NCBI GenBank assembly: GCA_963753165.1
Contig: CAVWBP010000002.1
Span: 272,301 to 336,300, forward strand
Length of the DNA stretch: 64,000 nucleotides
Direction: 5' to 3'
Source: Thermodesulfovibrionales bacterium
Lineage (GTDB): Bacteria > Nitrospirota > Thermodesulfovibrionia > Thermodesulfovibrionales > SM23-35
The notes below the pieces were generated by a model. It was not told where the DNA came from, did no database searches, and saw only the letters and a program-made list of their open reading frames with translations. Both the position numbers and the translations under genes were made by a program. Of this stretch, positions 3,104-57,666 are shown one piece after another (the first letter of the stretch is position 1; the number at the start of each line of letters is the position of its first letter).

Positions 3104-4426
3104 GTGGAGATGAAGATACTGATTGTCGATGACGACAAGAATCTGAGAAAGGTGCTCGCAAACGAGCTCTCTGATGCAGGATATGAAGTCTCCCAGGCTG
3201 ATAACGGGATAAAGGCGATTCAATTGATCGAGAAGGAAGAGCAGGATGTCCTCCTCCTCGATCTCAACATGCCGGGAATGAATGGCATGGAGATACTGAA
3301 ACAACTCAGGGAGCTCGATATCCCTGCGGAAGTTGTTATCCTCACTGCGTATGCGACGGTATCCACGGCAGTCGAGGCGATGAAGAACGGAGCGTATGAT
3401 TATCTGACAAAACCTTTCCAGATTGAAGAGCTCATCACTGCAGTTGAGCGGGCGTACGAGAAGAAGAGTCTGCTCACCGAAAACCTGCTGCTGAAATCAC
3501 AGTTAAAGCGGCAGACTGAAAGAAAAAAGATTGTGACAAACCACCCGCTCATGCTGGAGGTTCTTGAAATAGCAAAGAAATTCGCGCTTTCGGCGTTCCC
3601 TGTGCTGATAAGCGGCGAAAGCGGTGTAGGAAAGGAATTGGTCGCGCAGGTACTCCATGATTCCTCCCCCCGCAGCGAAGGGCCCTTTATCCCCATAAAC
3701 TGTGGGGCGATCCCCGAGACAATGATCGAGAGTGAACTTTTCGGCCATGAGAAAGGGGCCTTTACCGGCGCCTATGCAAAAAAACCCGGATTGCTCGAGA
3801 TCGCAAACCATGGTACGGTTTTCCTCGATGAAATCGGCGAACTGAGTCCTGTCCTCCAGGGGAAGCTGCTCAGGGTCATAGAGAACGGGAACTTCTTTCG
3901 GGTCGGCGGCATAAAAGAAGTCGGGGTGGACGTCAGATTTGTGTCGGCTACCAATAAAGATATCAACAAGGAAGTCGAAGAAGGCCGCTTCCGGCAGGAC
4001 CTCTATTACCGGATCAGCTCACTTGCCTTGACCATCCCTCCGCTGCGGGAACGGAAAGAGGATATTCCGATACTCGTCGAACATATCATAAAGAGCACCG
4101 GGATATTCAAAAACAGGGGCATAAGCAAAAAGGCGCTCAAGGTGCTTGCAGGATATTCCTGGCCCGGCAACGTCCGGGAACTCCAGAATGTTGTCCACAG
4201 GTCGTTATTCCTTTCCAGGAATCAGATCATTGATGCGAATGACCTCCCTGCCGACATGCTGGAGGGGCAGAATACCTCCGGGAGGAAGCTGGAAGATATC
4301 GAACGGGAGCATATTCTGAAGGTGTATCGGGAAGTGAACGGTCAGAAGAGAAAAGCAGCGCAAATCCTCGGTGTCGACCCGAAAACCCTGTACCGGAAAC
4401 TCTCATCGTACGGGATACAAGAATAG
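3104..4426 (+). CDS. Sigma54-dependent response regulator (REC-AAA+-HTH)
   Basis: REC (DDD...LLDLNMP), GESGVGKE, ESELFGHEKGAFTGA, WPGNVREL, Fis-type HTH. Confidence 0.95.
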   Translation: MEMKILIVDDDKNLRKVLANELSDAGYEVSQADNGIKAIQLIEKEEQDVLLLDLNMPGMNGMEILKQLRELDIPAEVVILTAYATVSTAVEAMKNGAYDYLTKPFQIEELITAVERAYEKKSLLTENLLLKSQLKRQTERKKIVTNHPLMLEVLEIAKKFALSAFPVLISGESGVGKELVAQVLHDSSPRSEGPFIPINCGAIPETMIESELFGHEKGAFTGAYAKKPGLLEIANHGTVFLDEIGELSPVLQGKLLRVIENGNFFRVGGIKEVGVDVRFVSATNKDINKEVEEGRFRQDLYYRISSLALTIPPLRERKEDIPILVEHIIKSTGIFKNRGISKKALKVLAGYSWPGNVRELQNVVHRSLFLSRNQIIDANDLPADMLEGQNTSGRKLEDIEREHILKVYREVNGQKRKAAQILGVDPKTLYRKLSSYGIQE

Positions 4427-5109: not shown

Positions 5110-6652
5110 TTTCCTCCACTGCCTGGTTCACGGGTTTTGGGGGTTCCTCTTTTATTCCTTCTATCTCCATCTTGATGTTGAAGCGGTCTGCATTCAGCCG
5201 GGTATCACGGAAGGTAGGGGAGGCGAATTCAGCCTTGATGAAATAAGGCGATGTTTCAAGTTTTGCGAGAAGCCCTGAAGAAGAACTTGCATATCCCTCC
5301 ATTTCTACTTTCGTCTCGCCTATGCGCAACCTGGTGAGCCATACGGTTTTCGGCAGGATGGTAGTGATCTCTTTGAGGATATTGAGCGCCATAGGTTTCT
5401 TGGTCTTGAAAGCATGTATCGCAGCAATATCTTTGCGGATATTCTCCACCTCTTTCTTGAGCGCTTCTACCTTTCTGACCTCTTCTTTTCTCTGCATAAT
5501 CTGGCGGTCAACTTCCTGAATCTTCTTCTCCTCCACCCTGAGCGGAGCCATGATATAGAGAACCCAGAGTACGAGGAGAGCAACCAGAAGAATGATTGTG
5601 AGCGCAAACGGCACCTTCTGCACGGGATGTCTTCCCCTGCTCAGGAGATTCAGGCGCTCTCTCTTCGGCCACAACGATTCTATTACTCCTCCGACGGCTG
5701 CATAGGGGATTTCAGATGTCTGTCCGGGGGTTTTGAACTTCAGATTAGTCTCATTCACGATGGTAAGCGGATGGGTAATGCGGGATTTCAGGATCTCCCG
5801 CAGGCCTGCGGTGCGGTCTTTAAAGAGTATCTGTATCCGCTCCGGTTTTCCGGACAGTTTTAAAATATCCGTATGAGTCTGAATTTCTGACATGAGCACA
5901 TCGGCCTGTGCTCGCTCATCCTCTGTCTGGAAATTTCCTGAAAAGGTGTTCATCACCGCACCTTTGATGAAGAGGGCGCCCTCGAAGCCTTCCTTCCTTA
6001 TGTCCAGGAAAAGCGAAGCTGCCTTCCCGTTGCGGTAAGAACTCAGCGCTTCCATGCACGAGAGGTTTACGGTTATCCGTGATACGTTGATCCCCTTTTC
6101 CCTGAATGCCTCCCTGTACTGATCGATGACGTCAGACCTGGCAGCGACAATGAACAGGGTGATCTTTTCTGCAGTCTCTCCGAGTATCCTGAAATCGTAA
6201 TAGGCGTTTTCAGCACTGAACGGCGTTATCCTGTCCAGTTCGTAAGAGACGACATTCGAAAGGCTCTCCTTCACTGCAGCGGGGAATTCCGCTGTTTTGA
6301 AGACAGCCCATGCTTTTGGAATACAGAGGGTAATCTCAGCCTCCGAAGTGGTGAATTCACTGAGTGCAAGAGCGGCAGACGATGCAAGCACTTCCGGCTG
6401 CGGGTATTTTCCTTCTTCAAAAGAAAATTCCCTTGTCTGTTTCACAGTAATTCTTGAGAGAAACCGTGAACCGTATGCTACAGATGCTGTCCCTTTTTCG
6501 AGAGAGACGGAAATGTTCTTTGACGGATAGACCCTGTCGTCAGCGGGACTGAACGAGAGTATTTTCCAGAGAGGACCACCTATCTGTTTCAGAGATGTTG
6601 ACGAGCTTGAGGCAACATCGGTTATTCTTTTTATGACTGCGCTTCCGTTCAT
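5096..6652 (-). CDS. gspL: Type II secretion GspL (PilM/PilN-like fused)
   Basis: Actin-like N-terminal region (YELDRITPF...YYDF), LNLL-TM-coiled coil, PKTVWLTRL...MEGYA PilN-type domain. Confidence 0.8.
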   Translation of the reverse strand: MNGSAVIKRITDVASSSSTSLKQIGGPLWKILSFSPADDRVYPSKNISVSLEKGTASVAYGSRFLSRITVKQTREFSFEEGKYPQPEVLASSAALALSEFTTSEAEITLCIPKAWAVFKTAEFPAAVKESLSNVVSYELDRITPFSAENAYYDFRILGETAEKITLFIVAARSDVIDQYREAFREKGINVSRITVNLSCMEALSSYRNGKAASLFLDIRKEGFEGALFIKGAVMNTFSGNFQTEDERAQADVLMSEIQTHTDILKLSGKPERIQILFKDRTAGLREILKSRITHPLTIVNETNLKFKTPGQTSEIPYAAVGGVIESLWPKRERLNLLSRGRHPVQKVPFALTIILLVALLVLWVLYIMAPLRVEEKKIQEVDRQIMQRKEEVRKVEALKKEVENIRKDIAAIHAFKTKKPMALNILKEITTILPKTVWLTRLRIGETKVEMEGYASSSSGLLAKLETSPYFIKAEFASPTFRDTRLNADRFNIKMEIEGIKEEPPKPVNQAVEENEEE

Positions 6653-21388: not shown

Positions 21389-22732
21389 TTACGGCGTTTT
21401 AATATCGTAAGCCTTGATTTTCCTGTGGAGGTTGCTTCGTTCGATATCGAGGGTCTCTGCGGTTCTCGATATATTCCAGTTATTCTCCTCGAGTTTCCTT
21501 GTAATGAATTCTTTTTCAAAGGCCTCTCTCGACTCTTTCAGCGTGGTGAGGGAAAAGTAGTCTGAGCGGGTAGATTCCCCGAGTATAATATTTTTTGGGG
21601 TTATCACCTGTGCCGGGGTCATGATCACGAGGCGTTCTATCATATTCCTCAACTCCCGGATGTTGCCGGGCCAGTCATATCCCTCCAGCTTTTTCAGAGC
21701 CTCGGGAGTCATTTTTTTGGGTTTCTGCCTGTATTCGAGGGCAAAATATTCGAGGAAATATTCGACGAGCGCCGGGATATCTTCTCTTTTCTCCCTGAGT
21801 GACGGGATTACGATCGGGATGACATTCAGCCTGAAAAGGAGGTCTTCCCTGAAATTTCCTTTCTTTACCTCTTCGAAGAGATCTTTATTGGTTGCGGTGA
21901 TAATTCTCACGTCAACCTTGATGTTCCTGTTTCCTCCGACCCTCTGGAATTCCTGAGTCTCGAGAACACGAAGTACTTTTGCCTGTGTAGAAAGGGACAT
22001 ATCGCCGACTTCGTCGAGAAAGAGCGTGCCTTCATCCGCAAGCTCAAATTTCCCATTTTTCCTCTCGAACGCACCGGTGAATGAACCTTTCTCATGACCG
22101 AGCAGTTCACTTTCGATAAGTTCCTGCGGGATTGCCGCGCAGTTCATTTCGATGAACGGCTTCTTCGCTCTCGTACTCTTTTCATGCAGGATGTGAGCGA
22201 TAAGTTCTTTTCCGGAACCGCTTTCCCCGAGGATCAGGACCCTGCTGTTGCTTTTTGCAGCCATCTCGACCTGTTCAAGGAGATGGACCATTTTAGGAGA
22301 ACTTCCGATAATCCGCCACTTCCGGGTCAGATCTTCTCTCAGTGACTTATTCTCCACTTCGAGCGAATAGCGTTCAATCGCACGTTGTGCGGTGAGCACA
22401 ACCCGTTCAAGAGAGAGCGGCTTTTCCAGAAAGTCATATGCCCCCATTCTGGTGGCCTTGACGGCAAGTTCAATGTTCCCGTGGCCGGAGATCATGATCA
22501 CGGGGATATCAGGCTTCACTTCCTTCATCAGTTTGAGAGTTTCGATGCCGTCCATTCCGGTGAGCCACACATCGAGCAGGATTAAATCCGGGCTCTGTTC
22601 TTTGATGACCTTCAGGGCTTCTTCACCCGAACTCGATGCAAGGACGGCGTATCCTTCATCCTCGAAGATGCCGGCAAGACTCTCGCGGATACCCTCTTCA
22701 TCATCTACGACAAGGATCAGTGGTGACGGCAT
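21389..22732 (-). CDS. ntrX: NtrX-like sigma54 response regulator
   Basis: REC-AAA+-HTH; GESGSGKE, ESELLGHEKGSFTGA, ERSNLHRKIK; follows ntrY-like kinase. Confidence 0.85.
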   Translation of the reverse strand: MPSPLILVVDDEEGIRESLAGIFEDEGYAVLASSSGEEALKVIKEQSPDLILLDVWLTGMDGIETLKLMKEVKPDIPVIMISGHGNIELAVKATRMGAYDFLEKPLSLERVVLTAQRAIERYSLEVENKSLREDLTRKWRIIGSSPKMVHLLEQVEMAAKSNSRVLILGESGSGKELIAHILHEKSTRAKKPFIEMNCAAIPQELIESELLGHEKGSFTGAFERKNGKFELADEGTLFLDEVGDMSLSTQAKVLRVLETQEFQRVGGNRNIKVDVRIITATNKDLFEEVKKGNFREDLLFRLNVIPIVIPSLREKREDIPALVEYFLEYFALEYRQKPKKMTPEALKKLEGYDWPGNIRELRNMIERLVIMTPAQVITPKNIILGESTRSDYFSLTTLKESREAFEKEFITRKLEENNWNISRTAETLDIERSNLHRKIKAYDIKTP

Positions 22733-24748
22733 TTATCGCTCCTTTAAGGGAATCTCAAGAGAGAAGACGGTTCCCTGTGGTTCGTTCTCATGTACCCGAA
22801 TGTGCCCTTTGTGTTCAGAAACTATCCTGTGGGCTATCGCAAGCCCCAGTCCGGTACCGTTCTTCCTCGTAGAGAAATAGGGCTGAAAGAGTTTTTCCTT
22901 GTCCTCTTCCATAATCCCCGGCCCGTTGTCTGCAATATGAATATAGACGAGATTGTAAGGGATGTCAAAATCAATCGTCACCTCGATTTTCCCATGACTC
23001 TTCATCGCCTGTATCGCATTGTCAAACAGATTAATGAGTACCCTTTTGAATTGTTCCCTGTCCAGTTCGACAACCGGTGAGGAGTCGGGCGCCGAAACAT
23101 GAATTTCTATGGCCTTATAATCCTTATAGAGGCTTGAGACCTCTTCGATTACGGGAAGGAGCGGCACCGGACTTTTTGAGATTTCCGGCATTTTACCGAA
23201 CCGCGAAAATTCGTCCACAAGACGTTTCAGACTGTCTACTTCCCTGACAATTGTCTTTGCAGACCTGCTGAAGACTTCATCGAAATCTTTATCCCGGTTT
23301 TCCCACTTCTTGATCATCCGTTCCGTAGAAAGTTTGATCGGGGTGAGCGGGTTTTTGATCTCATGAGCGATCCTCCGGGCGATATCCTGCCAGGTGAGCG
23401 CCTTCTGCGCCTCTATGATCTCTGTGAGATCGTCAAAGACTACCAGCAGGCCGATATATTTCTGAGAGTCCTTGAGGCTTGTGATAAAAACGAGGAGGAT
23501 AACCCGCCTGTTCCCGATCACCGCCTTCACCTCTTTTTTCATAGGTTTGAATTCTTTCCCTTCAATGCTGCTCACAAGTTTCTGGAGTTCGGGTGAGTTT
23601 AACGTCGTGATGAGTTCCCGATAGTGCTTGTGAATGATGTTGTCCTGTTCCATCCTGAGGATCGAGCATGCGCGGTCATTGATCATCGAAATTTCGCCGG
23701 AAGTATCAAGCATAATCACCCCTGAATTGATGTTGTCGAGGATGTTTTTCATATACAGATACGCTGATTGTAATGATTCCTGCCCTGTCTTCAGCTTTTT
23801 CACCATGTCATTAAAAGAATGAGTAAGAAGCGCTATCTCGTCCTCACGTTCGAGGACAACCTGAACATCAAGGTTGCCTCCCGCAACCTGTTCTGTGGCG
23901 AGCGCGAGATTCCGGATCGGATCAGTGATGCCCCGCGCAATTCTCAGGGCGATCCACAGGGCCATGAAAGTGACTATCAGGGTAAAGAACCCGAGAAAGA
24001 GAAGATAGTTTGCCTTGATCGGTATCCGCCATGATTCAAGGGTCAGATACGTTTCATACGCTTCTTTCATATCCTCAACGTTATGGGTAATGTTCTCCGG
24101 CAGCAACGACTCGACAATGATCACCCCGTCCTTCCCCCCCTGCTGAGCATGCGGTACCACTGCGCGAATGATATCCCCCCTGCTTCCGGATATTACTTCC
24201 GTACCCTCCTTTCCTTCGAACCCGGACCGTATCGTTTCAGACGCATCTTTCGGCAGTTCGTTCAGGTATCGCACCTGATATCCCTCAGAGAGAGAAGAAC
24301 CGGAGGCAAGTGATTGTGCGTGGTCCAGCGTCTTCTGCTTTTCGATGTCATACATCGCCTTGGCTATCTCAAGGGATTTTTCCAGGGGCTGACGGATCTG
24401 CGGAGCAAACCATCTGTCGATATAGGTGGTGATGAGACCGCTTGCCATGATGAACAAGACGGTAGCAGGAATGAGGGTAAGCGTAACGAAAATCACTACG
24501 AGCTTCGTCTTGAATTTATATCCCGGGATCTTGTGTTTTCTTTCGAAATAAAGCTTGACGAGGCTCTTGATGACAAAAAACATCAAAGTCAGCAGGGCTA
24601 TGATGGTCAGATTGAGAAGCAGGAGAATGACAAGCTTTGTGGAGAAGGAAACAGAGGCGCTCTGCATATAATGCAATTCGATTCCGAACGAGGCGAAGAG
24701 CAGAAGAGACAGGACTATAAGAAAGATGGAGAACCGGATACTTTTCAT
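22733..24748 (-). CDS. ntrY: NtrY-like HAMP-PAS sensor histidine kinase
   Basis: TMs, HAMP (ITDPI..LA..T..VA.GNL), PAS, WQDIARRIAHEIKNPLTPI H-box, DNGPG, GTGLGL. Confidence 0.88.
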   Translation of the reverse strand: MKSIRFSIFLIVLSLLLFASFGIELHYMQSASVSFSTKLVILLLLNLTIIALLTLMFFVIKSLVKLYFERKHKIPGYKFKTKLVVIFVTLTLIPATVLFIMASGLITTYIDRWFAPQIRQPLEKSLEIAKAMYDIEKQKTLDHAQSLASGSSLSEGYQVRYLNELPKDASETIRSGFEGKEGTEVISGSRGDIIRAVVPHAQQGGKDGVIIVESLLPENITHNVEDMKEAYETYLTLESWRIPIKANYLLFLGFFTLIVTFMALWIALRIARGITDPIRNLALATEQVAGGNLDVQVVLEREDEIALLTHSFNDMVKKLKTGQESLQSAYLYMKNILDNINSGVIMLDTSGEISMINDRACSILRMEQDNIIHKHYRELITTLNSPELQKLVSSIEGKEFKPMKKEVKAVIGNRRVILLVFITSLKDSQKYIGLLVVFDDLTEIIEAQKALTWQDIARRIAHEIKNPLTPIKLSTERMIKKWENRDKDFDEVFSRSAKTIVREVDSLKRLVDEFSRFGKMPEISKSPVPLLPVIEEVSSLYKDYKAIEIHVSAPDSSPVVELDREQFKRVLINLFDNAIQAMKSHGKIEVTIDFDIPYNLVYIHIADNGPGIMEEDKEKLFQPYFSTRKNGTGLGLAIAHRIVSEHKGHIRVHENEPQGTVFSLEIPLKER

Positions 24749-47308: not shown

Positions 47309-48721
47309 TTAGATATCGTAATAGAGGAAGAACTCATACGGATGCGGTCTGAGCCTCAGGGCGTCGACTTCTCTTGTCCTCTTGTAGCGCAGCCACATTT
47401 CGATAACATCCTCGGTAAATACGTCGCCTTTCTTGAGGAAACTGTGGTCTTTCTCAAGGCAGTCAAGCGCATCTTCGAGCGAGCCGGGAAGGCTCGGCAC
47501 CTTTGCGAGTTCCTCGGGGGCGAGGTCATAGATGTCCTTGTCGAGCGGTTCTCCCGGATGGATTTTGTTCTCGATGCCGTCAAGGCCCGCCATGAGCATC
47601 GCGGAGAACGCGAGGTACGGGTTGCATGACGGATCGGGGAACCTTACCTCTACCCTCTTCGCCTTCGGACTTGGAGAGTACATGGGGATTCTGATCGCCG
47701 CAGATCTGTTCCTGCTTGAGTATGCGAGATTGATCGGAGCCTCATATCCGGGCACGAGCCTCTTGTAGGAATTTGTTGTCGGTGCGACGAATGCAGCGAG
47801 GGCAGCGGCATGCTTCAGAATTCCGCCGATATAGTAGAGCGCAAGGTCTGAGATGCCTGCGTAGCCGTTCCCCGCAAACAGGGGCTTTCCGTTTTTCCAG
47901 AGGCTCTGGTGTGTATGCATGCCTGAGCCGTTGTCGCCGTAGAGGGGCTTAGGCATCATTGTTACGGTTTTCCCGTGCCTCGATGCAACATTCTTGATGA
48001 TATATTTGTACATCATCAGCTTGTCGGCCATATCCACAATCGGAGAGAATCTCATGTCTATCTCCGCCTGTCCGCCCGTAGCGACTTCGTGGTGCTGCGC
48101 TTCCACTTCTATTCCAGCTTTTTCCAGTTCAAGAACCATCTCGGTGCGGATATCCTGCTGCTTGTCCATCGGCGGGACAGGGAAATACCCTTCTTTGTGC
48201 CTCGGCTTGTACCCGAGGTTCGGACTCTCTTCTCTCCCCGAATTCCATATGCCTTCGACAGAATCTACGAAGTGATACCCGCTGTTTGCGGTATAATCAA
48301 ACCGCACATCATCGAAGATGAAAAACTCCGCCTCCGGGCCGAAGAACGCGGTATCCGCAACCTTGGTTGATTTCATGTATGCTTCAGCCTTCTGTGTTAT
48401 GTAGCGCGGATCTCTCGAATACGGTTCTTTTGTGATCGGATCGACAATATTGCAGATCAGACTGAGGGTAGGGTGCTGGGTGAAGGGGTCCATCACGGCG
48501 GTAGACGGATCGGGTATTACAAGCATATCGCTCATATGAATAGCCTGCCATCCCCGGATAGAAGACCCGTCGAAGCCCAGTCCGTCTTCGAACAGGCCCT
48601 CAGAGAGTACCTTAGCCGGAACGGAGAAGTGCTGCCAGAGTCCCGGAAAATCCATAAACTTCAGATCGACCATCACGGCTTTGTTCTTCTTGGCAAATTC
48701 CAAAACTTCCTTTGGTTTCAT
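47309..48721 (-). CDS. glnA: Glutamine synthetase type I
   Basis: [55 protein letters not shown], adenylylation site DIYDL. Confidence 0.98.
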
Positions 48722-48856: not shown

Positions 48857-50191
48857 TTATAATGAATATCCGCTTTCCCCGTGCTGCGATATATCAAGTC
48901 CGTTCACCTCCGACTCCTCGTCAACGCGCAGGCCGATCACTTTATCAATGAGTTTCAGCAGGACAACGCTAACCGCAAACGAATAGACTGCGGTCACGAG
49001 TATGGCAATCAACTGCGTATTAAGCAGCGCAAAACTGCCGAAAAATAATCCGTTGCCTCCTGCCGGGTTGATAACACTCTGTGCGAAGAGGCCGGTCGCG
49101 AAACTGCCGAGCACCCCGCCTACTCCGTGCACGCCGAACGCATCGAGTGAATCGTCATAACCAAGCCTGCCTTTTATATTCAGGGACGCGTAACATACCG
49201 CTCCCGCTGCCAGTCCGATGACCAATGATGACATGGGGCTCACAAAACCCGCGGCAGGAGTGATCGTTGCAAGTCCGGCAATCGAGCCGGTGGCTGCGCC
49301 GAAGGTGGTTGGTTTCCCCCTGTGCAGCCATTCGATGCATACCCATGCCAGTGTAGCGGCAACCGCGGACGTATGGGTTGCGACAAAGGCCATTGTGCTT
49401 AATGTCCCTGCAGACAGCGCGCTCCCGGCGTTGAATCCGAACCATCCGAACCAGAGGAGCCCTGTCCCCAGCACCGTCATGGGGAGGTTATGGGGATACA
49501 TCGCTTCCTGCAAATACCCTTTCCTTTTCCCGATAATCAGCGCTGCGGCAAGCGCCGAGATGCCGGATATCAGATGCACTACGATACCGCCTGCGAAATC
49601 CAGCGCCCCCATTTCCTTCAGCCATCCTCCTGTGCCCCAGACCCAATGTGCAACCGGGTCATATACGAGTGTCGACCACAGCAGGGTGAACACAAAGAAT
49701 GCGGAAAATTTCATCCGTTCCGCAAAGGCGCCGGTGATGAGCGCCGGTGTGATGACCGCAAACATTGCCTGGTACATCATAAACGCGATATGCGGCACGG
49801 TCGGGGCGTAGTCAGGGTTGGGTTCAACCCCGACGCCGTTCAGTCCTATCCAGTCCAGGCCTCCGATGACTCCGTGTATATCAGGGCCAAAGGCAAGGCT
49901 ATAGCCGACAAGGATCCACTGCACACTGATAATCGCAATCGCGACAAAACTCTGCATGATCGTGCCAAGCACATTTTTCCCCCTGACCATGCCTCCGTAG
50001 AACAGTGCAAGCCCGGGGGTCATCAGCATGACGAGGGCGGTGGATACCAGTATCCAGGCGGTGTCTCCTGAATCAATCTTCGGCGCAGCGGTTGTTTCCA
50101 GACCGGGCTGGAAAAGCTGATCTCCACCGAAAACGCTTCCGGCTGCGCCCAGCATGATGAGCATCAAAAGAATACCAACAAGTCCTTTCAT
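48857..50191 (-). CDS. amt: Ammonium transporter (Amt)
   Basis: [53 protein letters not shown]; RBS GGAGG before ATG 50191. Confidence 0.97.
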   Translation of the reverse strand: MKGLVGILLMLIMLGAAGSVFGGDQLFQPGLETTAAPKIDSGDTAWILVSTALVMLMTPGLALFYGGMVRGKNVLGTIMQSFVAIAIISVQWILVGYSLAFGPDIHGVIGGLDWIGLNGVGVEPNPDYAPTVPHIAFMMYQAMFAVITPALITGAFAERMKFSAFFVFTLLWSTLVYDPVAHWVWGTGGWLKEMGALDFAGGIVVHLISGISALAAALIIGKRKGYLQEAMYPHNLPMTVLGTGLLWFGWFGFNAGSALSAGTLSTMAFVATHTSAVAATLAWVCIEWLHRGKPTTFGAATGSIAGLATITPAAGFVSPMSSLVIGLAAGAVCYASLNIKGRLGYDDSLDAFGVHGVGGVLGSFATGLFAQSVINPAGGNGLFFGSFALLNTQLIAILVTAVYSFAVSVVLLKLIDKVIGLRVDEESEVNGLDISQHGESGYSL

Positions 50192-50240
50192 ACTTCCTCC
50201 CTGACATACAGGCGGTATTTTCCTCATGGTGCTTCTCTAT

Positions 50241-50255
50241 CCATGAATCATGCCA
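50241..50255 (-). promoter_or_regulatory. Sigma54-like promoter TGGCATG-ATTC-ATGG (non-canonical -12) for amt-glnA
   Basis: GG-N10-G spacing intact; about 50 nt upstream of the amt start. Confidence 0.55.
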
Positions 50256-50317
50256 GGCTGGGAACTTGTTGATTAATAAACAAAAAAAACAAAATGCTGG
50301 TTTTTACCCCTGAATAT

Positions 50318-50453
50318 CCTACAATATTGTAGGTACGGTATCGGGAGTCTGCAGGGGAGCATAGATATTTTCCCTTATTTTTCAACATCCGGCGCGGATT
50401 AAGGCATGTCAAAGAGCATTCCTACAAATTTGTATGAACAACAAATTTGTAGG
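50318..50453. promoter_or_regulatory. Three palindromic sites, consensus CTACAAWWTTGTAG (50318-50333, 50421-50436, 50438-50453)
   Basis: CCTACAATATTGTAGG is a perfect palindrome; the same motif recurs at 53631-53664. Confidence 0.75.
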
Positions 50454-50509
50454 ATTGAGAAGAGATCAGTTACCTCTGTCCAAAATATTGATTCAGATTG
50501 CGGGAAAGC

Positions 50510-50677
50510 AAGGGATATGGCTCAATTTCCAAAGCAAAATAAACTACCTTTGAGAAATATCCTGGCTTCATCTGTATTGTAGTGTTCGTATACAATCCAG
50601 AGTTGAGGCTTCCGCTTCGTCTCCAGCCTCATCGAGATTGCCCGTGATTTTGCTTTGGAAATTGAGCCATATCCCTT
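50510..50677. repeat. Dispersed ~166-nt element, copy C (perfect 31-bp terminal inverted repeats)
   Basis: AAGGGATATGGCTCAATTTCCAAAGCAAAAT and its exact reverse complement at 50647-50677; hairpin GAGGCT/AGCCTC at 50605-50630. Confidence 0.9.
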
Positions 50678-50734
50678 CTTTAAAATATCCTGGACAGCAA
50701 TGATAACCAATAGAAACGAATCGGGAAGTCCGCG

Positions 50735-51082
<348 letters not shown>

Positions 51083-51094
51083 TTATTCCATTAA

Positions 51095-51150
51095 AGTCAT
51101 TCGTCAATAGTCACCGATCATAATAAATCAATGACTATTGACTCTTGACT
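51095..51150. other. Long intergenic stem-loop between amt and glnK
   Basis: GTCAATAGTCA / TGACTATTGAC inverted repeat with outer AGTCA/TGACT arms. Confidence 0.6.
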
Positions 51151-51153
51151 GTT

Positions 51154-52530
51154 TTACAGACTGTACGCTTTCTCACCATGCTGGCTTTCGTCAAGCCCGG
51201 TGATCTCATGTTCAGATTCAACTCTCACTCCGAGCACCGCCCGGGCGATCACGAAGATAATCAGCGTCATCACCCCGCTGTATGCGATTGTTACACCCAC
51301 TGCGATCAGCTGAGTGATCAACTGACCCGGGTTCCCGTAGAGGAGACCGGTACCGGCTGAGTTGACTGCAGGATCTGCAAACACACCGGTCAGTATGGCG
51401 CCGAGGATACCGCCGACACCATGGATGCCAAAGGCGTCGAGCGCGTCGTCATATCCGAGCTTCGGCTTGATGCTCGCAACTGCGAAATAGGGCACGATAC
51501 CCGCGAGGATGCCGATGATTATCGCGCCTTGAATATTCACAAACCCTGCCGCAGGGGTTATTGCAACAAGACCTGCGATCGCACCGGAAGCAAGACCAAG
51601 CACCGTGGGCTTCTTCGTATGCATCCATTCCGTGAACATCCAGGACATTGCTGCGAGCGCGGTTGCGGTGTTGGTATTGATGAAAGCCACCCCGGCAAGT
51701 CCGTTCGCTGCAACCGCAGAGCCGGCATTAAACCCGAACCACCCGAACCAGAGAAGCCCGGCGCCGGTAACCACAAGGGTCAGGTTGCTCGGTTTGAGAG
51801 ATGCTTCATGTCTCTTGCCGAGGACCAGGGCGCCGACGAGCGCTGCAATACCTGCGTTTACATGTACCACTGTGCCGCCTGCAAAATCGAGGGCCCCGAG
51901 CTGCGCAAGAAACCCGCCGCCCCATACCCAATGGGCTACGGGAACATATACCAGCGTCATCCAGAGTATCGAGAAGAGTATCCAGGCGGAGAATTTCATC
52001 CTCTCAATGAATGCGCCGCTTGCAAGCGCTACCGTGATCGCTGCGAATGTCATCTGAAATACTATAAAAATGTATTCAGGGATGGTCATCGACAGACTTT
52101 CAACAGTCACCCCGGAAAGGAAGAGCTTTTCAGCGCTCCCGATGAATCCACCGATGTCCGAACCGAAAGTGAACGTATACCCGTAGGCAATCCACAGGAA
52201 ACTTACGATGCAGTAAGTTACAAAAGACATCGCCATGGTATTAAGAGTATCTTTTCTTTTCGCGAGACCGCCGTAAAACAGCGCAAGCCCCGGAAGTGTC
52301 ATCAGCATTACGAGCGCGGTAGCGACAATCATCCAGGCGGTATCGCCCGTGTCGAGTGTGGGAGCAGGGGCCTCCGAAACTGCCGGAACCGCTTCGTCCA
52401 TAGGGGCTGGCTGAGCAGGCAAAGCCTGCTCAGCTGCTGGAAGGGAAGGAGGGTTAGCCTGCTCTTCAGCAAAAGCCCATCCGCTTAAAAGCGCCAGCGT
52501 TAGTATCGTGAATACAACAAGATTCTTCAT
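51154..52530 (-). CDS. amt: Ammonium transporter (Amt), second paralog
   Basis: [40 protein letters not shown]. Confidence 0.97.
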
Positions 52531-52542
52531 TCTTTACCTCCG

Positions 52543-53310
52543 TTAAAAGCTCAGTGCCAGGTTTACGCCGCCGTAGAAAATGTCCTTGTCACCATCATCA
52601 CTGATGTTTTTTATCGCCTCTTTCGCGTCGCTGCTCAAGGGGAACGAGTAAGCGATCTTCGGTGTTACGGATACAGCCTTCCAAACAGGGATAGTCATTG
52701 AGGAAGAGATTTCACCATTGTAGAAGTTGTTGAAGTCCTCGCCATTTTTGTCATATCCCATTACCTTGTTTTTGATGTTATAGCTCACCGATGCTCCCAG
52801 GTCCAGTGACGTTTCTTTCATGACCTCGAAAGAATGTCCGACTGAAGCAACCACGAAGGCGCCCTGTCCCTCATCATAATCATAGTAGATTGTGAGTGTC
52901 GGGCTGAGCAGAGTATCATAGCCAGCAGAGACGAAGAGTTCCTGTGTGTCATTCGCGCCGTCCAGGGCATAATAAATATATCCGGCGGTAAGGGTGATCT
53001 TGTCGATCGAGCGGGTATAGGTCAGGGTTACGTCCGTCTCTGTCATTTCGCCATGTCCGGTATCGCTGCTGGTTGCTTCCGGTCTGTCAGAGTCATAGTT
53101 TGCCCATATATTTGCGCCAAACACTCCATAGGTGATGCCTACGGACGGCTGGACTACCCAGCTATTGCTTAACTTCTGTCCTCTCCATACATAATTGCTC
53201 ATGACATCCGCCGAAACACTTCCCTCTGTCTTGATGTCTTCTGCATAGAGACTTCCTGCTGCCATTACTGCGATGATCATTGCCAGAACCAAAACTTTAA
53301 AACTTTTCAT
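52543..53310 (-). CDS. Outer-membrane beta-barrel, TorF/Gcw_chp-like putative porin
   Basis: Signal peptide, SNYVWRGQ motif, alternating beta strands, C-terminal Phe; upstream of amt-glnK. Confidence 0.75.
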   Translation of the reverse strand: MKSFKVLVLAMIIAVMAAGSLYAEDIKTEGSVSADVMSNYVWRGQKLSNSWVVQPSVGITYGVFGANIWANYDSDRPEATSSDTGHGEMTETDVTLTYTRSIDKITLTAGYIYYALDGANDTQELFVSAGYDTLLSPTLTIYYDYDEGQGAFVVASVGHSFEVMKETSLDLGASVSYNIKNKVMGYDKNGEDFNNFYNGEISSSMTIPVWKAVSVTPKIAYSFPLSSDAKEAIKNISDDGDKDIFYGGVNLALSF

Positions 53311-53372
53311 TTTTCCCTCCGGTATCTTGGTTATTTATATTTTTGCTGCGTACTGCGTAGTGTACTTAGCGC

Positions 53373-53549
53373 TTAATGTTCTCCATCCTCCTCCTTTCTG
53401 ATTTTGTATTTCCTGATTTTGTATCCAATCATCCTTTCCGTTATATCCAGCTTTTTTGCAGCCCTTGCCATTATCCAGTTGGATGTTCTCATTGCATTGA
53501 GTATCTCTTCTCTCTCTATCTCTTTCACTTTTTCCCTTAGCGATCCCAT
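53373..53549 (-). CDS. Stand-alone Fis-type HTH protein resembling the NifA/bEBP C-terminal DNA-binding domain (58 aa)
   Basis: EIEREEILNAMRTSNWIMARAAKKLDITERMIGYKI; RBS AGGTGA before ATG 53549; no AAA+ remnant recognised upstream. Confidence 0.78.
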   Translation of the reverse strand: MGSLREKVKEIEREEILNAMRTSNWIMARAAKKLDITERMIGYKIRKYKIRKEEDGEH

Positions 53550-53570
53550 CGTCTCACCTGTTCTCTTTAT

Positions 53571-53586
53571 ATCGAAAACCGTGCCA
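53571..53586 (-). promoter_or_regulatory. Sigma54-like promoter TGGCACG-GTTT-TCGA
   Basis: Perfect -24 box and G at -13; predicted TSS about 12 nt before the HTH start codon. Confidence 0.65.
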
Positions 53587-53630
53587 GTTTGCAACTTGTT
53601 GATTTAAAAAGGGAAAGAGTATTTGTTGAA

Positions 53631-53674
53631 ACTACAATTTTGTATGACGCTACAATTTTGTAGTACAAATTGTG
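53631..53674. promoter_or_regulatory. Tandem CTACAATTTTGTA sites (53631-53646, 53649-53664) plus a degenerate third
   Basis: Same motif and tandem arrangement as 50421-50453; 45-90 bp upstream of the -24 box. Confidence 0.75.
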
Positions 53675-54098
53675 GTGCGCACAGCAGTTTTCCGGGCGAG
53701 AGGAGGGAATGCCGGAAATTTATGGGCAGAGCAAGTTGTCTCTTAAAGCCGCATACATGATCGTCTTGGGATTGTTGCGACTTTACTTGCTTATCAACGC
53801 CGAGCAAAAATCAAAATCGTTGGAGAGTACACCGGGACTAAACACAGCGGGCTTTGTGTATAGTGAGTCTTTCAAATCGAAATAAATAGCTGTCTTATGA
53901 GGAGATGTGTTTGACCTTTTTGGGAGTGAATGATCTTTGGAGAAAAGTCTACGGTTGAGGGTAGTTGCCTGGCTGTCAGCATCACTGCGGATTTCGGAAA
54001 AGAAGCTTGAAAAACTGGTGGAGCTGATCAAAAAGCGGAATCCATATAAATCCTGCGGTTTAGAAATTCATAGCAAGGTATTGCCGCACCTCTGACAA

Positions 54099-56131
54099 TT
54101 GGCGTGCTGCATGTCAAACATCTGCTACTCGCATCCGTTGCTTAATATGTTAGATGAAGATTACAGATATGAGCAAGACGATGTTATTACCAACAATTTT
54201 TACAGCGACTACATTCAGAAGGCCCCCATTTTTCTCAAGAACGATGCACAAAAACTACGAGAGTTTATTAAAGCCAACGTCAAATACGGAGACAAAAATC
54301 AAATTATGTACCGTATTGATCATGGCAAGATAAAACCATCAAAGAACCTTGCAGATAACCTTGTATCGATGCTTAAGGGTAACGAAGAGTTCATGATGAT
54401 TGACGACCAGAAAGTTGTCTACGAAACGGCTATCAAGCTTGCTGAGAAGTCTTCAGCAAAGAAGAAAAATGTGTTGATCGTTGAAGGCGGCCCAGGAACC
54501 GGTAAATCCGTAGTGGCAATTAATCTGCTTGTTGAACTAACAAAACGCGAACTTGTTGCTCAATATGTGACGCGCAACTCCGCACCCCGCTTGGTGTACG
54601 AAGCCATGCTCACCGGCACGTTCACGAGAACTCATATATCAAATATGTTCAGTGGTTCCGGCTCGTACCATTCAACTGAAGCAAACAGTTTTCGATTGTT
54701 TGATTGTCGATGAAGCGCACAGGCTAAACGCGAAATCAGGGATGTTTAACCATCTTGGTGAAAACCAGATTAAGGAGATAATCAGCGCCAGTAAGTGTAG
54801 TTTATTCTTTATAGACGAAGACCAAAAGGTGACCCTCAAAGACATTGGTGATAAGGAAGAAATCCGCCGTTGGGCAGTAAAGCAAAGAGCAAATGTTACT
54901 GAACTCAAACTAGAATCACAATTTCGTTGCAATGGCTCAGACGGGTACCTTGCCTGGCTTGACAATACGCTACAGATTCGAGAAACTGCAAATGACACAC
55001 TCAACGTTAGTGAATATGATTTTCGCATATTGGACAGCCCAACTGAACTGCATAATATTGATACGTGAGAAAAACAGTGAAAAGAACAAAGCGCGTATGG
55101 TGGCAGGCTACTGCTGGAAATGGATCAGCAAAAAGAAACCAGAACTCAAAGATATTGTTATAGATGGTTACAAAGCGACTTGGAATCTCGACACCGATGG
55201 GCAAGCCTGGATTATTAAACCAAATTCAGTCAACGAAGTCGGATGCATACACACCTGTCAGGGATTAGAATTAGATTATGTTGGAGTGATAGTCGGCCCC
55301 GACCTGGTAGTTCGCGGTAGTAAAGTAAAAACACAACCTGAAAAACGGGCAAGTACGGACAGGTCTATTCACGGGTGGAAACAAATGATAGAAGACGAGC
55401 CAAGAGACACGAGGACGCGCCTTGATGCGATTATCAAAAACACTTACCGGACACTCATGACCCGCGGGCAAAAAGGCTGCTATGTTTACTTTATCGATAA
55501 AGAAACTGAAAGATTTTTTAGAACTCGTATCGAAGCAACAGCCTTAGAAAATGATGTTGTAAGGAACGTTGTGCCTTTGTCTATCCGTAGGCAAGTATCT
55601 CCCAGTTTGCCATTTCGCCGGTTACCTATTAATGAAGTGGTTCCTTTCAAGAACTGCGTGCCTATCTATGATCTAAAAGTGGCCGCAGGTCGATTTAGCG
55701 ATGAGCAGCGGGTTGCTGAAGTGGTTCAAGGGGCGGAGTTGCAGCATCCAGAAGATTATGAGTGGGCTGAACTGCCAAGCGTCTTTCGGCCACAACAGGG
55801 TTTATTTATAGCTCAGGTAATAGGCGAATCTATGAACCGGCGCATCCCTAATGGCGCGTGGTGCTTATTCAGATTGTCACCGGTTGGCACGCGCCAAGGG
55901 AAAGTCGTACTTGTACAACATAGAGAAATTCATGATGCTGATACCGGCGGACATTTTACAGTAAAGACTTATGAAAGCAAAAAAGAGATTTTCCCAGATG
56001 GAACGTGGAAACATAGTCAAATTATCCTAAGACCAGAAACTACGGCGCTTGGATATGAGCCAATTGTATTGAACCCAGAATCTGCGGAAGATTTGCGTGC
56101 CATTGCAGAATTGATTGCTGTGCTTGGATAA
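54099..56131 (+). pseudogene. DUF2075 (Schlafen group 3-like) helicase fused to an S24/LexA-like peptidase domain; N-terminus apparently missing, two frameshifts (~54690, ~55060)
   Basis: GGPGTGKS Walker A, IVDEAHRL, SQFRC.GS.GY, HTCQGLELDYVGVI, YRTLMTRG; C-terminal IYDL.VAAG.F, GESM (Ser) and TVK (Lys). Confidence 0.8.
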
Positions 56132-56361: not shown

Positions 56362-56736
56362 ATGAATAAAGAGAAACTGCCGGCTAATATAAAAGTACAT
56401 CCGAGTGTCTTGAGGAGCATCAGGGAAATTGCAGTCCTTGATGAGGAGAAGGCAGGAAAGATTATGCAGAGGATCGTTGGACTGGGGTTGGACCCGTTAC
56501 CTGTGAGCGGCGAATGTAAGTCTGAGACGATCATTAACCTTAGAAAGAAAAGAGTTCTCGTCAAACGGCTCAAATGTCTGGATATCATGCAGTACAGAAT
56601 ATTTTACGCTTATAAAAAATCCGGTTTGATTTGCGTGTATTGCGTTGTTCCGAGGGATAAGGATACCTATAATGAAAATTCATGGCATTATCAAATGGTA
56701 AAGCTTCTTTATGCAAAGTGGAAGGAGTGTCAATGA
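56362..56736 (+). CDS. RelE/HigB-superfamily toxin
   Basis: I...I..LGLDPLP, KRLK...YRIFY, VYCVVPR..TY pattern; first gene of a three-gene operon. Confidence 0.7.
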   Translation: MNKEKLPANIKVHPSVLRSIREIAVLDEEKAGKIMQRIVGLGLDPLPVSGECKSETIINLRKKRVLVKRLKCLDIMQYRIFYAYKKSGLICVYCVVPRDKDTYNENSWHYQMVKLLYAKWKECQ

Positions 56737-57269
56737 CCTCAATTGAAAATCTGCGTTATGAACCTGTTTCTCCATATCAATGGCAATACCCTTTTCAGGT
56801 TATTCCCGTTGCTGATCTTGAGAAGATCTGCGAGACCTGTGACTCGATAAAGGACAAGCACCTTGAGAAGCTCAAGGTTGAAAACAGAAAGCTTAAAAAA
56901 CATATTGCGTTTCTGCAAAATGAAGTGCAGGCATTGGAGTTAAAAACCGCCCTGACAGCGAAGGCTGTTCCCCTTGAGGATATGGTTGCAGAGGTAACCT
57001 CAACGCCTGAAGGTAAGAAAGCATGGGATGAAGCCTGGAAAGAGCAGATCGAGAAATGGCGGAGTCAAATGGAGGCAAGTGCCATCAGCCGGGTGAAATA
57101 TTACCGTCTTCTCAACGGGATGGATCAAAAGACTCTGGCTGAGAAACTCGGCACGGCTCAACCGAACATCAGCAGAATTGAACGTCCGGGCTATAATGTG
57201 CCTGTTGTGACATTAAGAAAGCTTGCGAAGATTTATAACGTAACGATGGAGGATCTCCTTGGCGGTTGA
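56733..57269 (+). CDS. HigA-like XRE-HTH antitoxin with ~80-aa N-terminal extension
   Basis: ATGA overlap with the toxin stop; C-terminal HTH (YRLLNGMDQKTLAEKLGTAQPNISRIER...TLRKLAKIYNVTMEDLL). Confidence 0.8.
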   Translation: MTSIENLRYEPVSPYQWQYPFQVIPVADLEKICETCDSIKDKHLEKLKVENRKLKKHIAFLQNEVQALELKTALTAKAVPLEDMVAEVTSTPEGKKAWDEAWKEQIEKWRSQMEASAISRVKYYRLLNGMDQKTLAEKLGTAQPNISRIERPGYNVPVVTLRKLAKIYNVTMEDLLGG

Positions 57270-57666
57270 TACCGGTATTCAATTCAAGAGTGTCGCATTG
57301 ACTGAACTGTATTTTAAGCGAAACAAATCCTTTGTTCATCCGAAAGACGGTATCCCCATCGAAATCGCTTTTAAAACCAAGAATTCGTTTAGTCCTGATA
57401 AGAAGAATCTTACGGTGGTGCTTTCAGTCAGACTGTTCGAGAAGAGCAAGAACCGACCATTTGAAATAGAAGCCTCTGTGGAAGGAACATTTTCAGGTAA
57501 AGACCATAAAGAGCTTCTGAAATTCTCAAAAATCCTTGCACCAGCACATCTGTTCCCCTTTGTTCGAGAAATAATCGCAAATGCTACGATGAAGGCGAAT
57601 ATCCCTCCTCTTCTCCTCCCTCCGATCAATTTATTAGCAGCACCCGGCAAAAAGAAAAAGAAATAA
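57259..57666 (+). CDS. SecB-like chaperone
   Basis: FEIEASVEGTF, APAHLFPFVREIIA..T...IPPLLLPPIN SecB signature; TTG start with GGAGG RBS. Confidence 0.88.
   Translation: MAVDTGIQFKSVALTELYFKRNKSFVHPKDGIPIEIAFKTKNSFSPDKKNLTVVLSVRLFEKSKNRPFEIEASVEGTFSGKDHKELLKFSKILAPAHLFPFVREIIANATMKANIPPLLLPPINLLAAPGKKKKK

Follow-up and report, generated by a model that had tools for sequence, protein, structure and literature searches.

The DNA under study is a stretch of 64,000 nucleotides (hereafter the window) from a Thermodesulfovibrionales bacterium (assembly GCA_963753165.1, contig CAVWBP010000002.1, positions 272,301 to 336,300), in which a small gene on the minus strand (53373..53549, stop codon included) encodes a stand-alone NifA-type HTH_8 protein of 58 amino acids (aa) at the head of a predicted operon for nitrogen uptake. 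The gene starts with an ATG at 53549 and stops at 53375-53373, and its product is MGSLREKVKEIEREEILNAMRTSNWIMARAAKKLDITERMIGYKIRKYKIRKEEDGEH. It is followed on the same strand by a gene for a 255-aa secreted, beta-barrel-like putative porin with a signal peptide and the C-terminus ...ALSF (52543..53310), and by genes for an ammonium transporter (Amt; 51154..52530; Pfam Ammonium_transp, E 7e-131) and a P-II protein (GlnK; 50735..51073; Pfam P-II, E 2.6e-34). A first-pass annotation, made from the letters of the window, had described the small protein as a free NifA-type DNA-binding domain (DBD) encoded by the first gene of the operon, and had proposed that it acts as an anti-activator in a negative feedback; the observation is confirmed here, and the regulatory interpretation is partly supported.

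The 58-aa product belongs to Pfam HTH_8 (41.9 bits, gathering score 22, E 8e-11), and the same search returned no domain besides HTH_8, in agreement with the annotation, which had seen in it only a Fis-type helix-turn-helix (HTH). A GAF sensor and an AAA+ motor are not part of the protein, whose content corresponds to helices B-D of a NifA-type DBD. In the AlphaFold2 model (predicted local distance difference test score of 90) helices span residues 4-22, 27-33, and 38-47, and helix A is absent, since the model begins at helix B. Its Foldseek neighbours were the DBDs of sigma54 activators (2m8g, NtrC4, and NtrC1) together with Fis, at template modelling (TM) scores of 0.7-0.83, and the closest solved chains in a PDB sequence search were 2m8g (3.4e-11), a sigma54-activator DBD whose molecule carries the name "Transcriptional regulator" only, and then NifA 9qq6 (4.5e-8). 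Furthermore, the best NCBIfam match was the nifA model TIGR01817, at model positions 488-530 of 534 (35.2 bits). The protein has helices B-D, no helix A, and a recognition helix of the form T-x-R-x-[IV]-x-Y-[KR], the features of a NifA-type DBD; it resembles that domain but is not a NifA, as its 35 bits stand against an equivalog cutoff of 529 (528.85 bits, a whole-protein score for GAF, AAA+, and DBD). Since it has no AAA+ domain for interaction with sigma54 (GAFTGA loop), it is not a bacterial enhancer-binding protein, that is, a sigma54 activator; HTH_8 being its only module, it holds no activating one, and the C-terminal tail past helix D is short and unconserved.

Counts of copies and synteny given below refer to 80 species-level genome loci with 81 gene copies, and counts of promoters to 84 non-identical upstream regions, of which 80 were anchored. 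Across these loci the aligned ATG is kept, and the in-frame stretch upstream of it is short, ended by a stop codon, and not conserved as protein; the start codon is ATG in all but two copies and aligns with that of the window in nearly every copy. A 73-aa version from a TTG at 53594, given in a mechanical list of open reading frames (ORFs), was rejected, the extension overlapping the promoter with its -24 element and being unconserved as protein. The ribosome-binding site that the annotation had ascribed to the gene was found as a Shine-Dalgarno (SD)-like GGTGAG (53553..53558, minus strand), located right where the predicted transcript begins, and an SD-like motif occurs no more than 18 nt from the start in 66/80 orthologues.

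Searching 5.8 billion proteins, we obtained at least 330 homologues, the best 120 all being 57-91 aa long; those with a named source belong to Nitrospirota, Thermodesulfovibrionales, and Dissulfurispiraceae. A separate exhaustive search of cluster representatives (50% identity) returned 351 clusters; nearly all of the top ~100 are 50-120 aa long, the three longer entries among them being partial matches or proteins with repeated HTH_8 domains. Full-length activators with a single such domain enter the list only from E ~1e-6, at 42-55% identity. The small gene is spread over Thermodesulfovibrionia and other Nitrospirota, with a frame that is short in all 80 species-level genomes and preceded shortly upstream by an in-frame stop. 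The median ratio of nonsynonymous to synonymous substitution (dN/dS) over 679 pairs was 0.11, with a nonsynonymous divergence of 0.05-0.17 and synonymous sites near saturation. Moreover, contigs 99% identical to the gene were detected in an estuary metatranscriptome (two runs, one sample), covering 53345-53557 and 53403-53557, with a synonymous change as the sole internal difference from the window; both end at 53557, 3 nt from the predicted transcription start at 53560. Groundwater runs from the habitat of the window gave nothing usable on transcription of the small gene. The ORF is a genuine, expressed protein-coding gene, conserved class-wide.

The annotation had argued against a simple truncation, and the short homologues, the dN/dS value, and a promoter lying immediately upstream in 80/84 regions bear this out, ruling out a truncated pseudogene. 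Full-length activators at the orthologous position would have counted against the interpretation of the annotation; none occurs in the 80 orthologous genome loci. A single distant contig (L090, discussed below) has one at the equivalent place, which would fit a non-functional remnant of an activator gene. Against a remnant stand the retention of the short ORF and its separate start across 80 species-level genomes, the dN/dS of 0.11 (with synonymous sites saturated), the promoter directly upstream, and transcription in the one metatranscriptome sample, and the remnant is excluded for practical purposes.

Directly upstream of the gene, where the annotation had placed a sigma54-like promoter, we find a -24/-12 element TGGCACGGTTTTCGA (53572..53586, minus strand), preceded by an IHF-like box AAATCAACAAGTTG (WATCAANNNNTTR; 53592..53605, minus strand), a promoter-proximal enhancer palindrome CTACAATTTTGTAT (53632..53645; position weight matrix [PWM] score 18.7), and a distal one, CTACAATTTTGTAG, 18 bp from the proximal (53650..53663; score 20.4). 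In an alignment of the 84 upstream regions anchored on the -24 GG, 80 share the order of palindrome pair, AAATCAAnnnnTTR box, and -24/-12 promoter, with the promoter consensus yTGGCAyGrTTyT[GCA]GC, palindromes centred ~70 and ~52 bp ahead of the GG, and the box at a conserved distance of ~20 bp from it; adjacent palindrome pairs are 18-19 bp apart in 70/91. The box fits the IHF consensus, from which alone IHF binding is predicted. In these 80 regions predicted activator sites are separated from the promoter by a putative IHF site, as in enhancer-dependent promoters, whose activator sites lie about 70-100 bp upstream, and the promoter of the small gene is accordingly predicted to be sigma54-dependent with a classical enhancer layout. 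The window promoter reads TGGCACG-N4-TCGA, and its -12 element, GA instead of GC, is a variant common to 16/80 promoters; among the 80 anchored promoters, G stands at -13 in 79 and C at -12 in 55. A loose sigma54 pattern is not enriched in the window itself (36 matches, 48 expected), so that the case for the promoter is carried by the comparative alignment only. The distance from GG to ATG (53550-53586 in the window) is tightly kept in the 80 orthologous promoters, with a median of 38 nt, which leaves a leader of only ~13 nt (about 11-15 nt) and puts the SD motif at the 5' end of the transcript. So short and conserved a leader is unusual for the first gene of a long operon.

The palindromes define a motif, tACAAwwTTGTa, whose PWM was built from 158 sites and in which ACA and TGT stand at 93-95%. 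The palindrome CTACAAWWTTGTAG, with up to two mismatches, matches the window six times (0.57 expected), and five of these matches lie in two nitrogen promoters (50319, 50422, 50439, 53632, and 53650); PWM scores above 17 are reached at only five places in the window, of which two precede the small gene and three lie in the spacer between glnK and a second amt gene (amt2). This spacer (50228-50734) is a second promoter region of the enhancer type, with a lone palindrome (50319-50332), a pair 17 bp apart (50422-50435 and 50439-50452, together 50422-50452), and, as read from the sequence, a second IHF-like box TAATCAACAAGTT with a sigma54-like element TGGCATGATTCATGG (50241..50275, minus strand). 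It precedes genes for the second Amt (48857-50227) and, downstream, glutamine synthetase (GlnA; 47309-48721), both on the minus strand. The arrangement of two palindromes plus one recurs before amt2-glnA in related loci, where palindrome pairs were also identified before an ABC-transporter/cyanase operon and other genes.

The nifH promoters of the lineage (L060, L092-L094, L106, and L107) carry two ACA-N4-TGT units, an IHF-like box, and TGGCAT-N5-TTGC. The canonical NifA site is TGT-N10-ACA, and in these promoters the core palindromes are 20 bp apart, so that this canonical site is formed incidentally between the units (e.g., L060 9260-9290; L094 727-762); as a control, the same search on more distant nifH genes recovered canonical TGT-N10-ACA ~110 bp upstream of their promoters. 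From unit to unit the spacing depends on the promoter class, with 17 bp at amt2, 18-19 bp at the small gene, and 20 bp at nifH. As N4 within the unit is constant and the spacing between units varies, the palindrome is the likely binding unit; the canonical TGT-N10-ACA was rejected in this role, since it arises only at the 20-bp spacing of nifH and not at 17 or 18-19 bp. In addition, a single tACAnnnnTGTa palindrome lies 22-37 nt before the nifA start codon in L017, L060, L062, L172, and L173, representing at least three lineages (L017 3264-3279; ~34 nt before nifA in L060 and L062; 6964-6979 in L172 and L173), and is the sole PWM hit in 15.5 kb in the last two. No sigma54 promoter was found in these five nifA upstream regions, and a sigma70-type promoter would be expected where the palindrome sits, which suggests that nifA may be repressed by whichever protein reads it. 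The motif is common to the upstream regions of nifH, amt, glnA, and nifA, and suggests that NifA of this lineage controls general nitrogen assimilation and not the nif genes alone.

Which activator has the HTH most similar to that of the small protein can be answered from the same genomes: full-length NifA orthologues, whose recognition helix differs at two fixed positions. The same lineages contain many such orthologues (74-100% identity), including one in the cultured Dissulfurispira thermophila, and one 2.45-Mb contig encodes both a NifA (P0367) and a small protein (P0071). In 6/80 loci (L017, L038, L039, L060, L062, and L075) a GAF-AAA+-HTH_8 activator of 510-540 aa with a NifA-type helix adjoins the small gene, and the two just upstream of it, in L017 and L060, exceed the nifA equivalog cutoff with 606 and 586 bits; in L094, the nifA gene ends ~60 bp before the nifH enhancer. 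We compared 116 small proteins with 117 NifAs of the lineage over a 48-residue DBD core. The consensus of turn and recognition helix is LGITERMIGYKIKKY in the former and LGITPRQIGYKIKKY in the latter, with 13/15 positions equal, and the recognition helix itself reads ITERMIGYKIRKY in the window protein, ITERMIGYKIKKY in the small-protein consensus, and ITPRQIGYKIKKY in the NifAs, so that the NifA-like character ascribed to it earlier stands. Identity in the core is 79% among small proteins, 78% among lineage NifAs, and only 50% between the groups, which marks them as two old clades.

The two activators encoded in the window, NtrX-like (21389-22732) and NtrC/AtoC-like (3104-4426), the proteins of which end in ...LGVDPKTLYRKLSSYGIQE and ...LDIERSNLHRKIKAYDIKTP, were considered as partners and rejected, their recognition helices being unrelated to TERMIGYKI, a difference that the annotation had also pointed out. 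A search of the window for GAFTGA/ESELFGH recovered only these two. Covariation of helix and site was unusable as evidence, because the helix is invariant and a sister group with the helix TQRI has the same half-sites.

We consider the best-supported mechanism to be one in which the small protein would act as a motor-less competitor at NifA enhancers and provide negative feedback, with a probability of roughly 45%. Under nitrogen limitation, full-length NifA of the lineage would bind the palindromes and fire the promoter, and the small protein would build up alongside the transporter and GlnK. With a recognition helix nearly identical to that of NifA, it would come to sit on NifA half-sites, where it would be unable to remodel sigma54-RNA polymerase, and its occupancy would cap or tune activation. 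It would probably also sit on the single palindrome upstream of the nifA start, extending the feedback to synthesis of the activator. Three elements of this scheme we infer, namely NifA as the activator of this promoter, binding of the palindromes by the small protein, and a negative net effect; sharing of sites is suggested by the near-identical helices and the motif common to nifH, amt, glnA, and nifA.

Several observations weigh against motor-less competition. The 64-kb window holds no NifA gene, and NifA is the presumed driver of this promoter, which another activator might serve instead. Two positions of the recognition helix are fixed in each clade, E and M in the small protein and P and Q in NifA; judging from how the helix aligns with those of Fis and NtrC, we take both to face DNA, and specificity may differ for that reason. 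The outer T..A of the palindrome is present in 71% of sites at small-gene promoters (n=148) vs. 27% of nifH sites (n=11), which could mean two different binders. NifA-type DBDs without helix A are reported to be monomeric in solution and to dimerise only on DNA, with a dissociation constant of ~35 uM (bioRxiv 10.1101/2023.05.30.542961), so that the small protein could compete effectively only if it were abundant or had evolved to bind more tightly. Furthermore, simple feedback does not obviously explain several copies per genome heading different nitrogen operons, and the RNA contigs are assembled from a single sample, carry no strand information, and possibly contain DNA.

Among the alternatives, the small protein might be a positive or architectural cofactor that binds palindromes or half-sites and aids loading of NifA, bending of DNA together with IHF, or bookmarking of the enhancer, in which case its place as first gene would give a positive feed-forward. 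The fold is shared with Fis, an architectural protein, the extended high-scoring palindromes are specific to promoters of assimilation operons, the weak binding of NifA-type DBDs on their own makes a helper conceivable, and several copies per genome would raise its dose; we nevertheless find such a role doubtful, given that the protein has no domain able to contact NifA, IHF, or polymerase beyond its three helices and short tail, that a motor-less domain on a palindrome takes the site away from the activator, and that nifH promoters use the same core sites with no small gene adjoining. Just as doubtful is a different target, whereby the fixed E38 and M40 would confer a specificity of their own, either for the extended CTACA..TGTAG only or for unrelated sites at which the protein would serve as a small repressor induced by starvation (e.g., of nifA or of ammonium-replete genes). 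The invariance of both positions within each clade, the outer bases that separate small-gene sites from nifH sites, and the lone palindrome in front of nifA, where no sigma54 promoter is found, would fit this; it has against it the 13 helix positions held in common with NifA, the TTGTAG half-sites of the sister group with the helix TQRILGYK, and the aligned promoter regions, in which no other conserved inverted repeat is visible. A related reading joins these observations in another way: the small protein would be a specificity factor for the extended CTACA..TGTAG form, pairing on these sites with the flexibly tethered DBD of NifA or excluding it from them, and would divide one activator between assimilation operons (amt, glnK, glnA, and permeases) and nif genes, whose sites lack the outer bases. 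We regard it as distinctly unlikely; if true, it would amount to an enhancer code of two components, with the promoter hierarchy of a sigma54 activator set by a free paralogue of its DBD that is the leading cistron of each target operon.

Interference might also take place between proteins, with the small protein pairing with the DBD of NifA on or off DNA and acting as a poison subunit, in mixed dimers that bind poorly or cannot form a competent ring. Helix B, the dimer contact of the fold, is conserved in both clades (IE[KR]..I..AL), and DBDs of the NifA type do dimerise on DNA; off DNA, those without helix A stay monomeric (bioRxiv 10.1101/2023.05.30.542961), and helix B is so alike in all HTH_8 domains that the specificity of pairing is questionable, which makes such a decoy improbable. 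More remote still is a split activator, in which the small protein would be the DNA-binding subunit for an HTH-less AAA+ part encoded at another locus. Activators that lack a DBD, among them FlgR, CtcC, and FleT, exist (PMC3162934), and the homologue and cluster searches recovered no full-length protein with the exact TERM helix from these genomes; yet the three helices leave no further surface to hold a partner, the same genomes encode a complete NifA that has a DBD itself, and the gene would depend on a promoter that needs its own product.

Regarding the genes that the small gene heads, Amt lies no more than 4.5 kb downstream in 55/81 copies, in line with the annotation, which had placed it first in a nitrogen-uptake operon; the remainder are followed by a porin homologue only (11), GlnA (2), P-II (1), or other genes (4), or are cut by the end of the contig (8). 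The porin-only copies that were inspected head operons for a porin, an amino-acid permease, and PP2C/kinase beside nif genes, and another subfamily heads a BBP2 porin, Amt, P-II, and DUF1646. Two or more copies occur in several genomes, where each is the first gene of a different nitrogen-related operon (pairs L026/L029, L043/L058, L033/L065, and L032/L046), and L032 has tandem copies at 5382-5537 and 6001-6177. The operons headed by these copies include amt-glnK, an amino-acid permease with a PP2C/kinase fusion, and BBP2 porin-Amt-DUF1646. Subfamilies differ in their C-terminal tails, e.g., ...RIKEVRWIED.

A distant group of small proteins (44% identity, helix TQRILGYK) heads an operon of barrel, amt, P-II, nadE, and glnA genes, and the DNA upstream combines TTGTAG half-sites with an IHF-like box and a sigma54 promoter. 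In L090 (1-470), binned as Planctomycetes, the contig opens with the end of a full-length activator gene, immediately followed by barrel-amt-P-II, and the helix of this activator, LTERILGYKIKKY, resembles that of the small proteins; the interval between activator and barrel gene contains CTACATTTTTGTGT and a perfect TGGCACG-N4-TTGC, and this promoter, TGGCACGacaaTTGC, belongs to barrel-amt-P-II. As activators with the small-protein type of helix are linked to the same operon and to a similar site, the free DBD may descend from such a neighbour. P0286, the "71-aa VnfA" of this Planctomycetes bin, was rejected as a stand-alone member, since it is the C-terminal portion of that full-length activator, whose gene runs off the contig, and P0283 (L091) was not used, its contig looking scrambled. 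Four proteins of 320-833 aa (P0145, P0186, P0204, and P0226) carry four to six HTH_8 domains in tandem; P0145 has four repeats of ...AL...GW....AA..LGI....

Within the predicted operon, the small gene and the porin gene are 62 nt apart, and the two terminator-like sites detected in a scan of 50100-54000 both lie outside this gap; one RNA contig extends 28 nt beyond the stop of the small gene, and none bridges to the next gene. The barrel-like protein has no Pfam or NCBIfam match, its gene is syntenic in most loci, and its equivalent in L045 is a BBP2 porin. A hairpin of 14 pairs flagged by the terminator scan at 50420-50454 consists of the two adjacent palindromes before amt2 pairing with each other, and, lying upstream of the promoter, it is probably not a terminator. 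With the -24 GG of that promoter at ~50254, a transcript would have next to no leader ahead of the ATG listed at 50227; translation of amt2 therefore probably begins at Met13 (50191), in front of which stands GGGGGGAAGC.

Elsewhere in the window, the minus strand at 21389-24748 encodes an NtrY-like histidine kinase (NtrY_N, HAMP, PAS, and HisKA) together with the NtrX-like sigma54 activator (501 bits, cutoff 600), a pair that is a second candidate for a nitrogen-related two-component system and whose helix does not match those of the palindrome-linked proteins. On the plus strand, 54099-56131 encodes a helicase of the Schlafen-group-3/DUF2075 type with a C-terminal S24 (LexA-like) peptidase domain; it is broken into overlapping ORFs (54099-54713, 54652-55068, and 54932-56131), which implies two frameshifts and hence a pseudogene or an assembly error. 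Three small overlapping genes follow on the plus strand (56362-57666), for a 124-aa protein with no family match, an XRE-type HTH_3 protein, and a SecB-like chaperone, and together look like a toxin-antitoxin-chaperone module.

Full-text literature searches retrieved no description of a free DBD of a bacterial enhancer-binding protein, or of nitrogen regulation in this lineage, and we found no published description of a DBD-only version of an activator that is anciently fixed as first gene of that activator's own target operons. If motor-less competition holds true, it would constitute a simple feedback layer at the DNA level in the nitrogen control of Thermodesulfovibrionia and related Nitrospirota, which are abundant anaerobes of groundwater, sediment, and hot springs. 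The enhancer motif of the regulon is now defined.

Sigma54 activators are modular proteins, with sensor, motor, and DNA-binding parts. With the DNA-binding part of NifA the small protein shares the three-helix HTH_8 fold without helix A, the C-terminus of the nifA model as best family match, and the helix positions noted above, and the TGT/ACA half-sites of its palindromes match the triplets of the canonical NifA site. Unlike that domain, it is not part of a 510-aa protein but the product of a separate gene, which has a promoter and a ribosome-binding site to itself; in its helix E and M take the place of P and Q, and the unit ACA-N4-TGT is repeated every 17-20 bp. Fis, a stand-alone HTH_8 nucleoid protein of 98 aa, is likewise small and free-standing, with the same Pfam family and fold; however, the small protein has no residues before helix B, and thus neither the N-terminal beta-hairpin nor the helix A that give the stable Fis dimer, no Fis model was among its NCBIfam matches at E <= 0.001, and it is tied to one regulon and one type of promoter, not global. 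That the modules can exist apart is known from sigma54 activators without a DBD, namely FlgR, CtcC, and FleT (PMC3162934). These keep the motor and lose the DBD, and the small protein is their mirror image, a DBD only.

In its proposed outcome, a reduced output of a sigma54 activator, the small protein would resemble NifL, PspA, FleN, and HrpV, protein anti-activators that bind the AAA+ or sensor domain of sigma54 activators; none of these is known to be a copy of the activator's DNA-binding domain. MerD (with MerR) and ArsD (with ArsR) are operon-encoded secondary regulators that share the operator of the main regulator and are thought to limit expression, and the proposed logic would be alike, with a small DNA-binding protein co-induced with its operon and limiting it via the same site, whereas the folds are unrelated, the mer and ars promoters are of the sigma70 type, and here a distant enhancer acts with sigma54 and the gene is the first, not the last, cistron. 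ICER (of CREM) and LIP (of C/EBPbeta) are DBD-only isoforms, induced by their own pathway, that compete at the activator's sites in negative feedback, and the small protein would play a similar role as a DNA-binding-only version of an activator. ICER and LIP arise from the same gene as their activators, by internal promoters or start codons, whereas the small protein is encoded by a separate, anciently diverged gene, with 50% identity to the NifA DBD.

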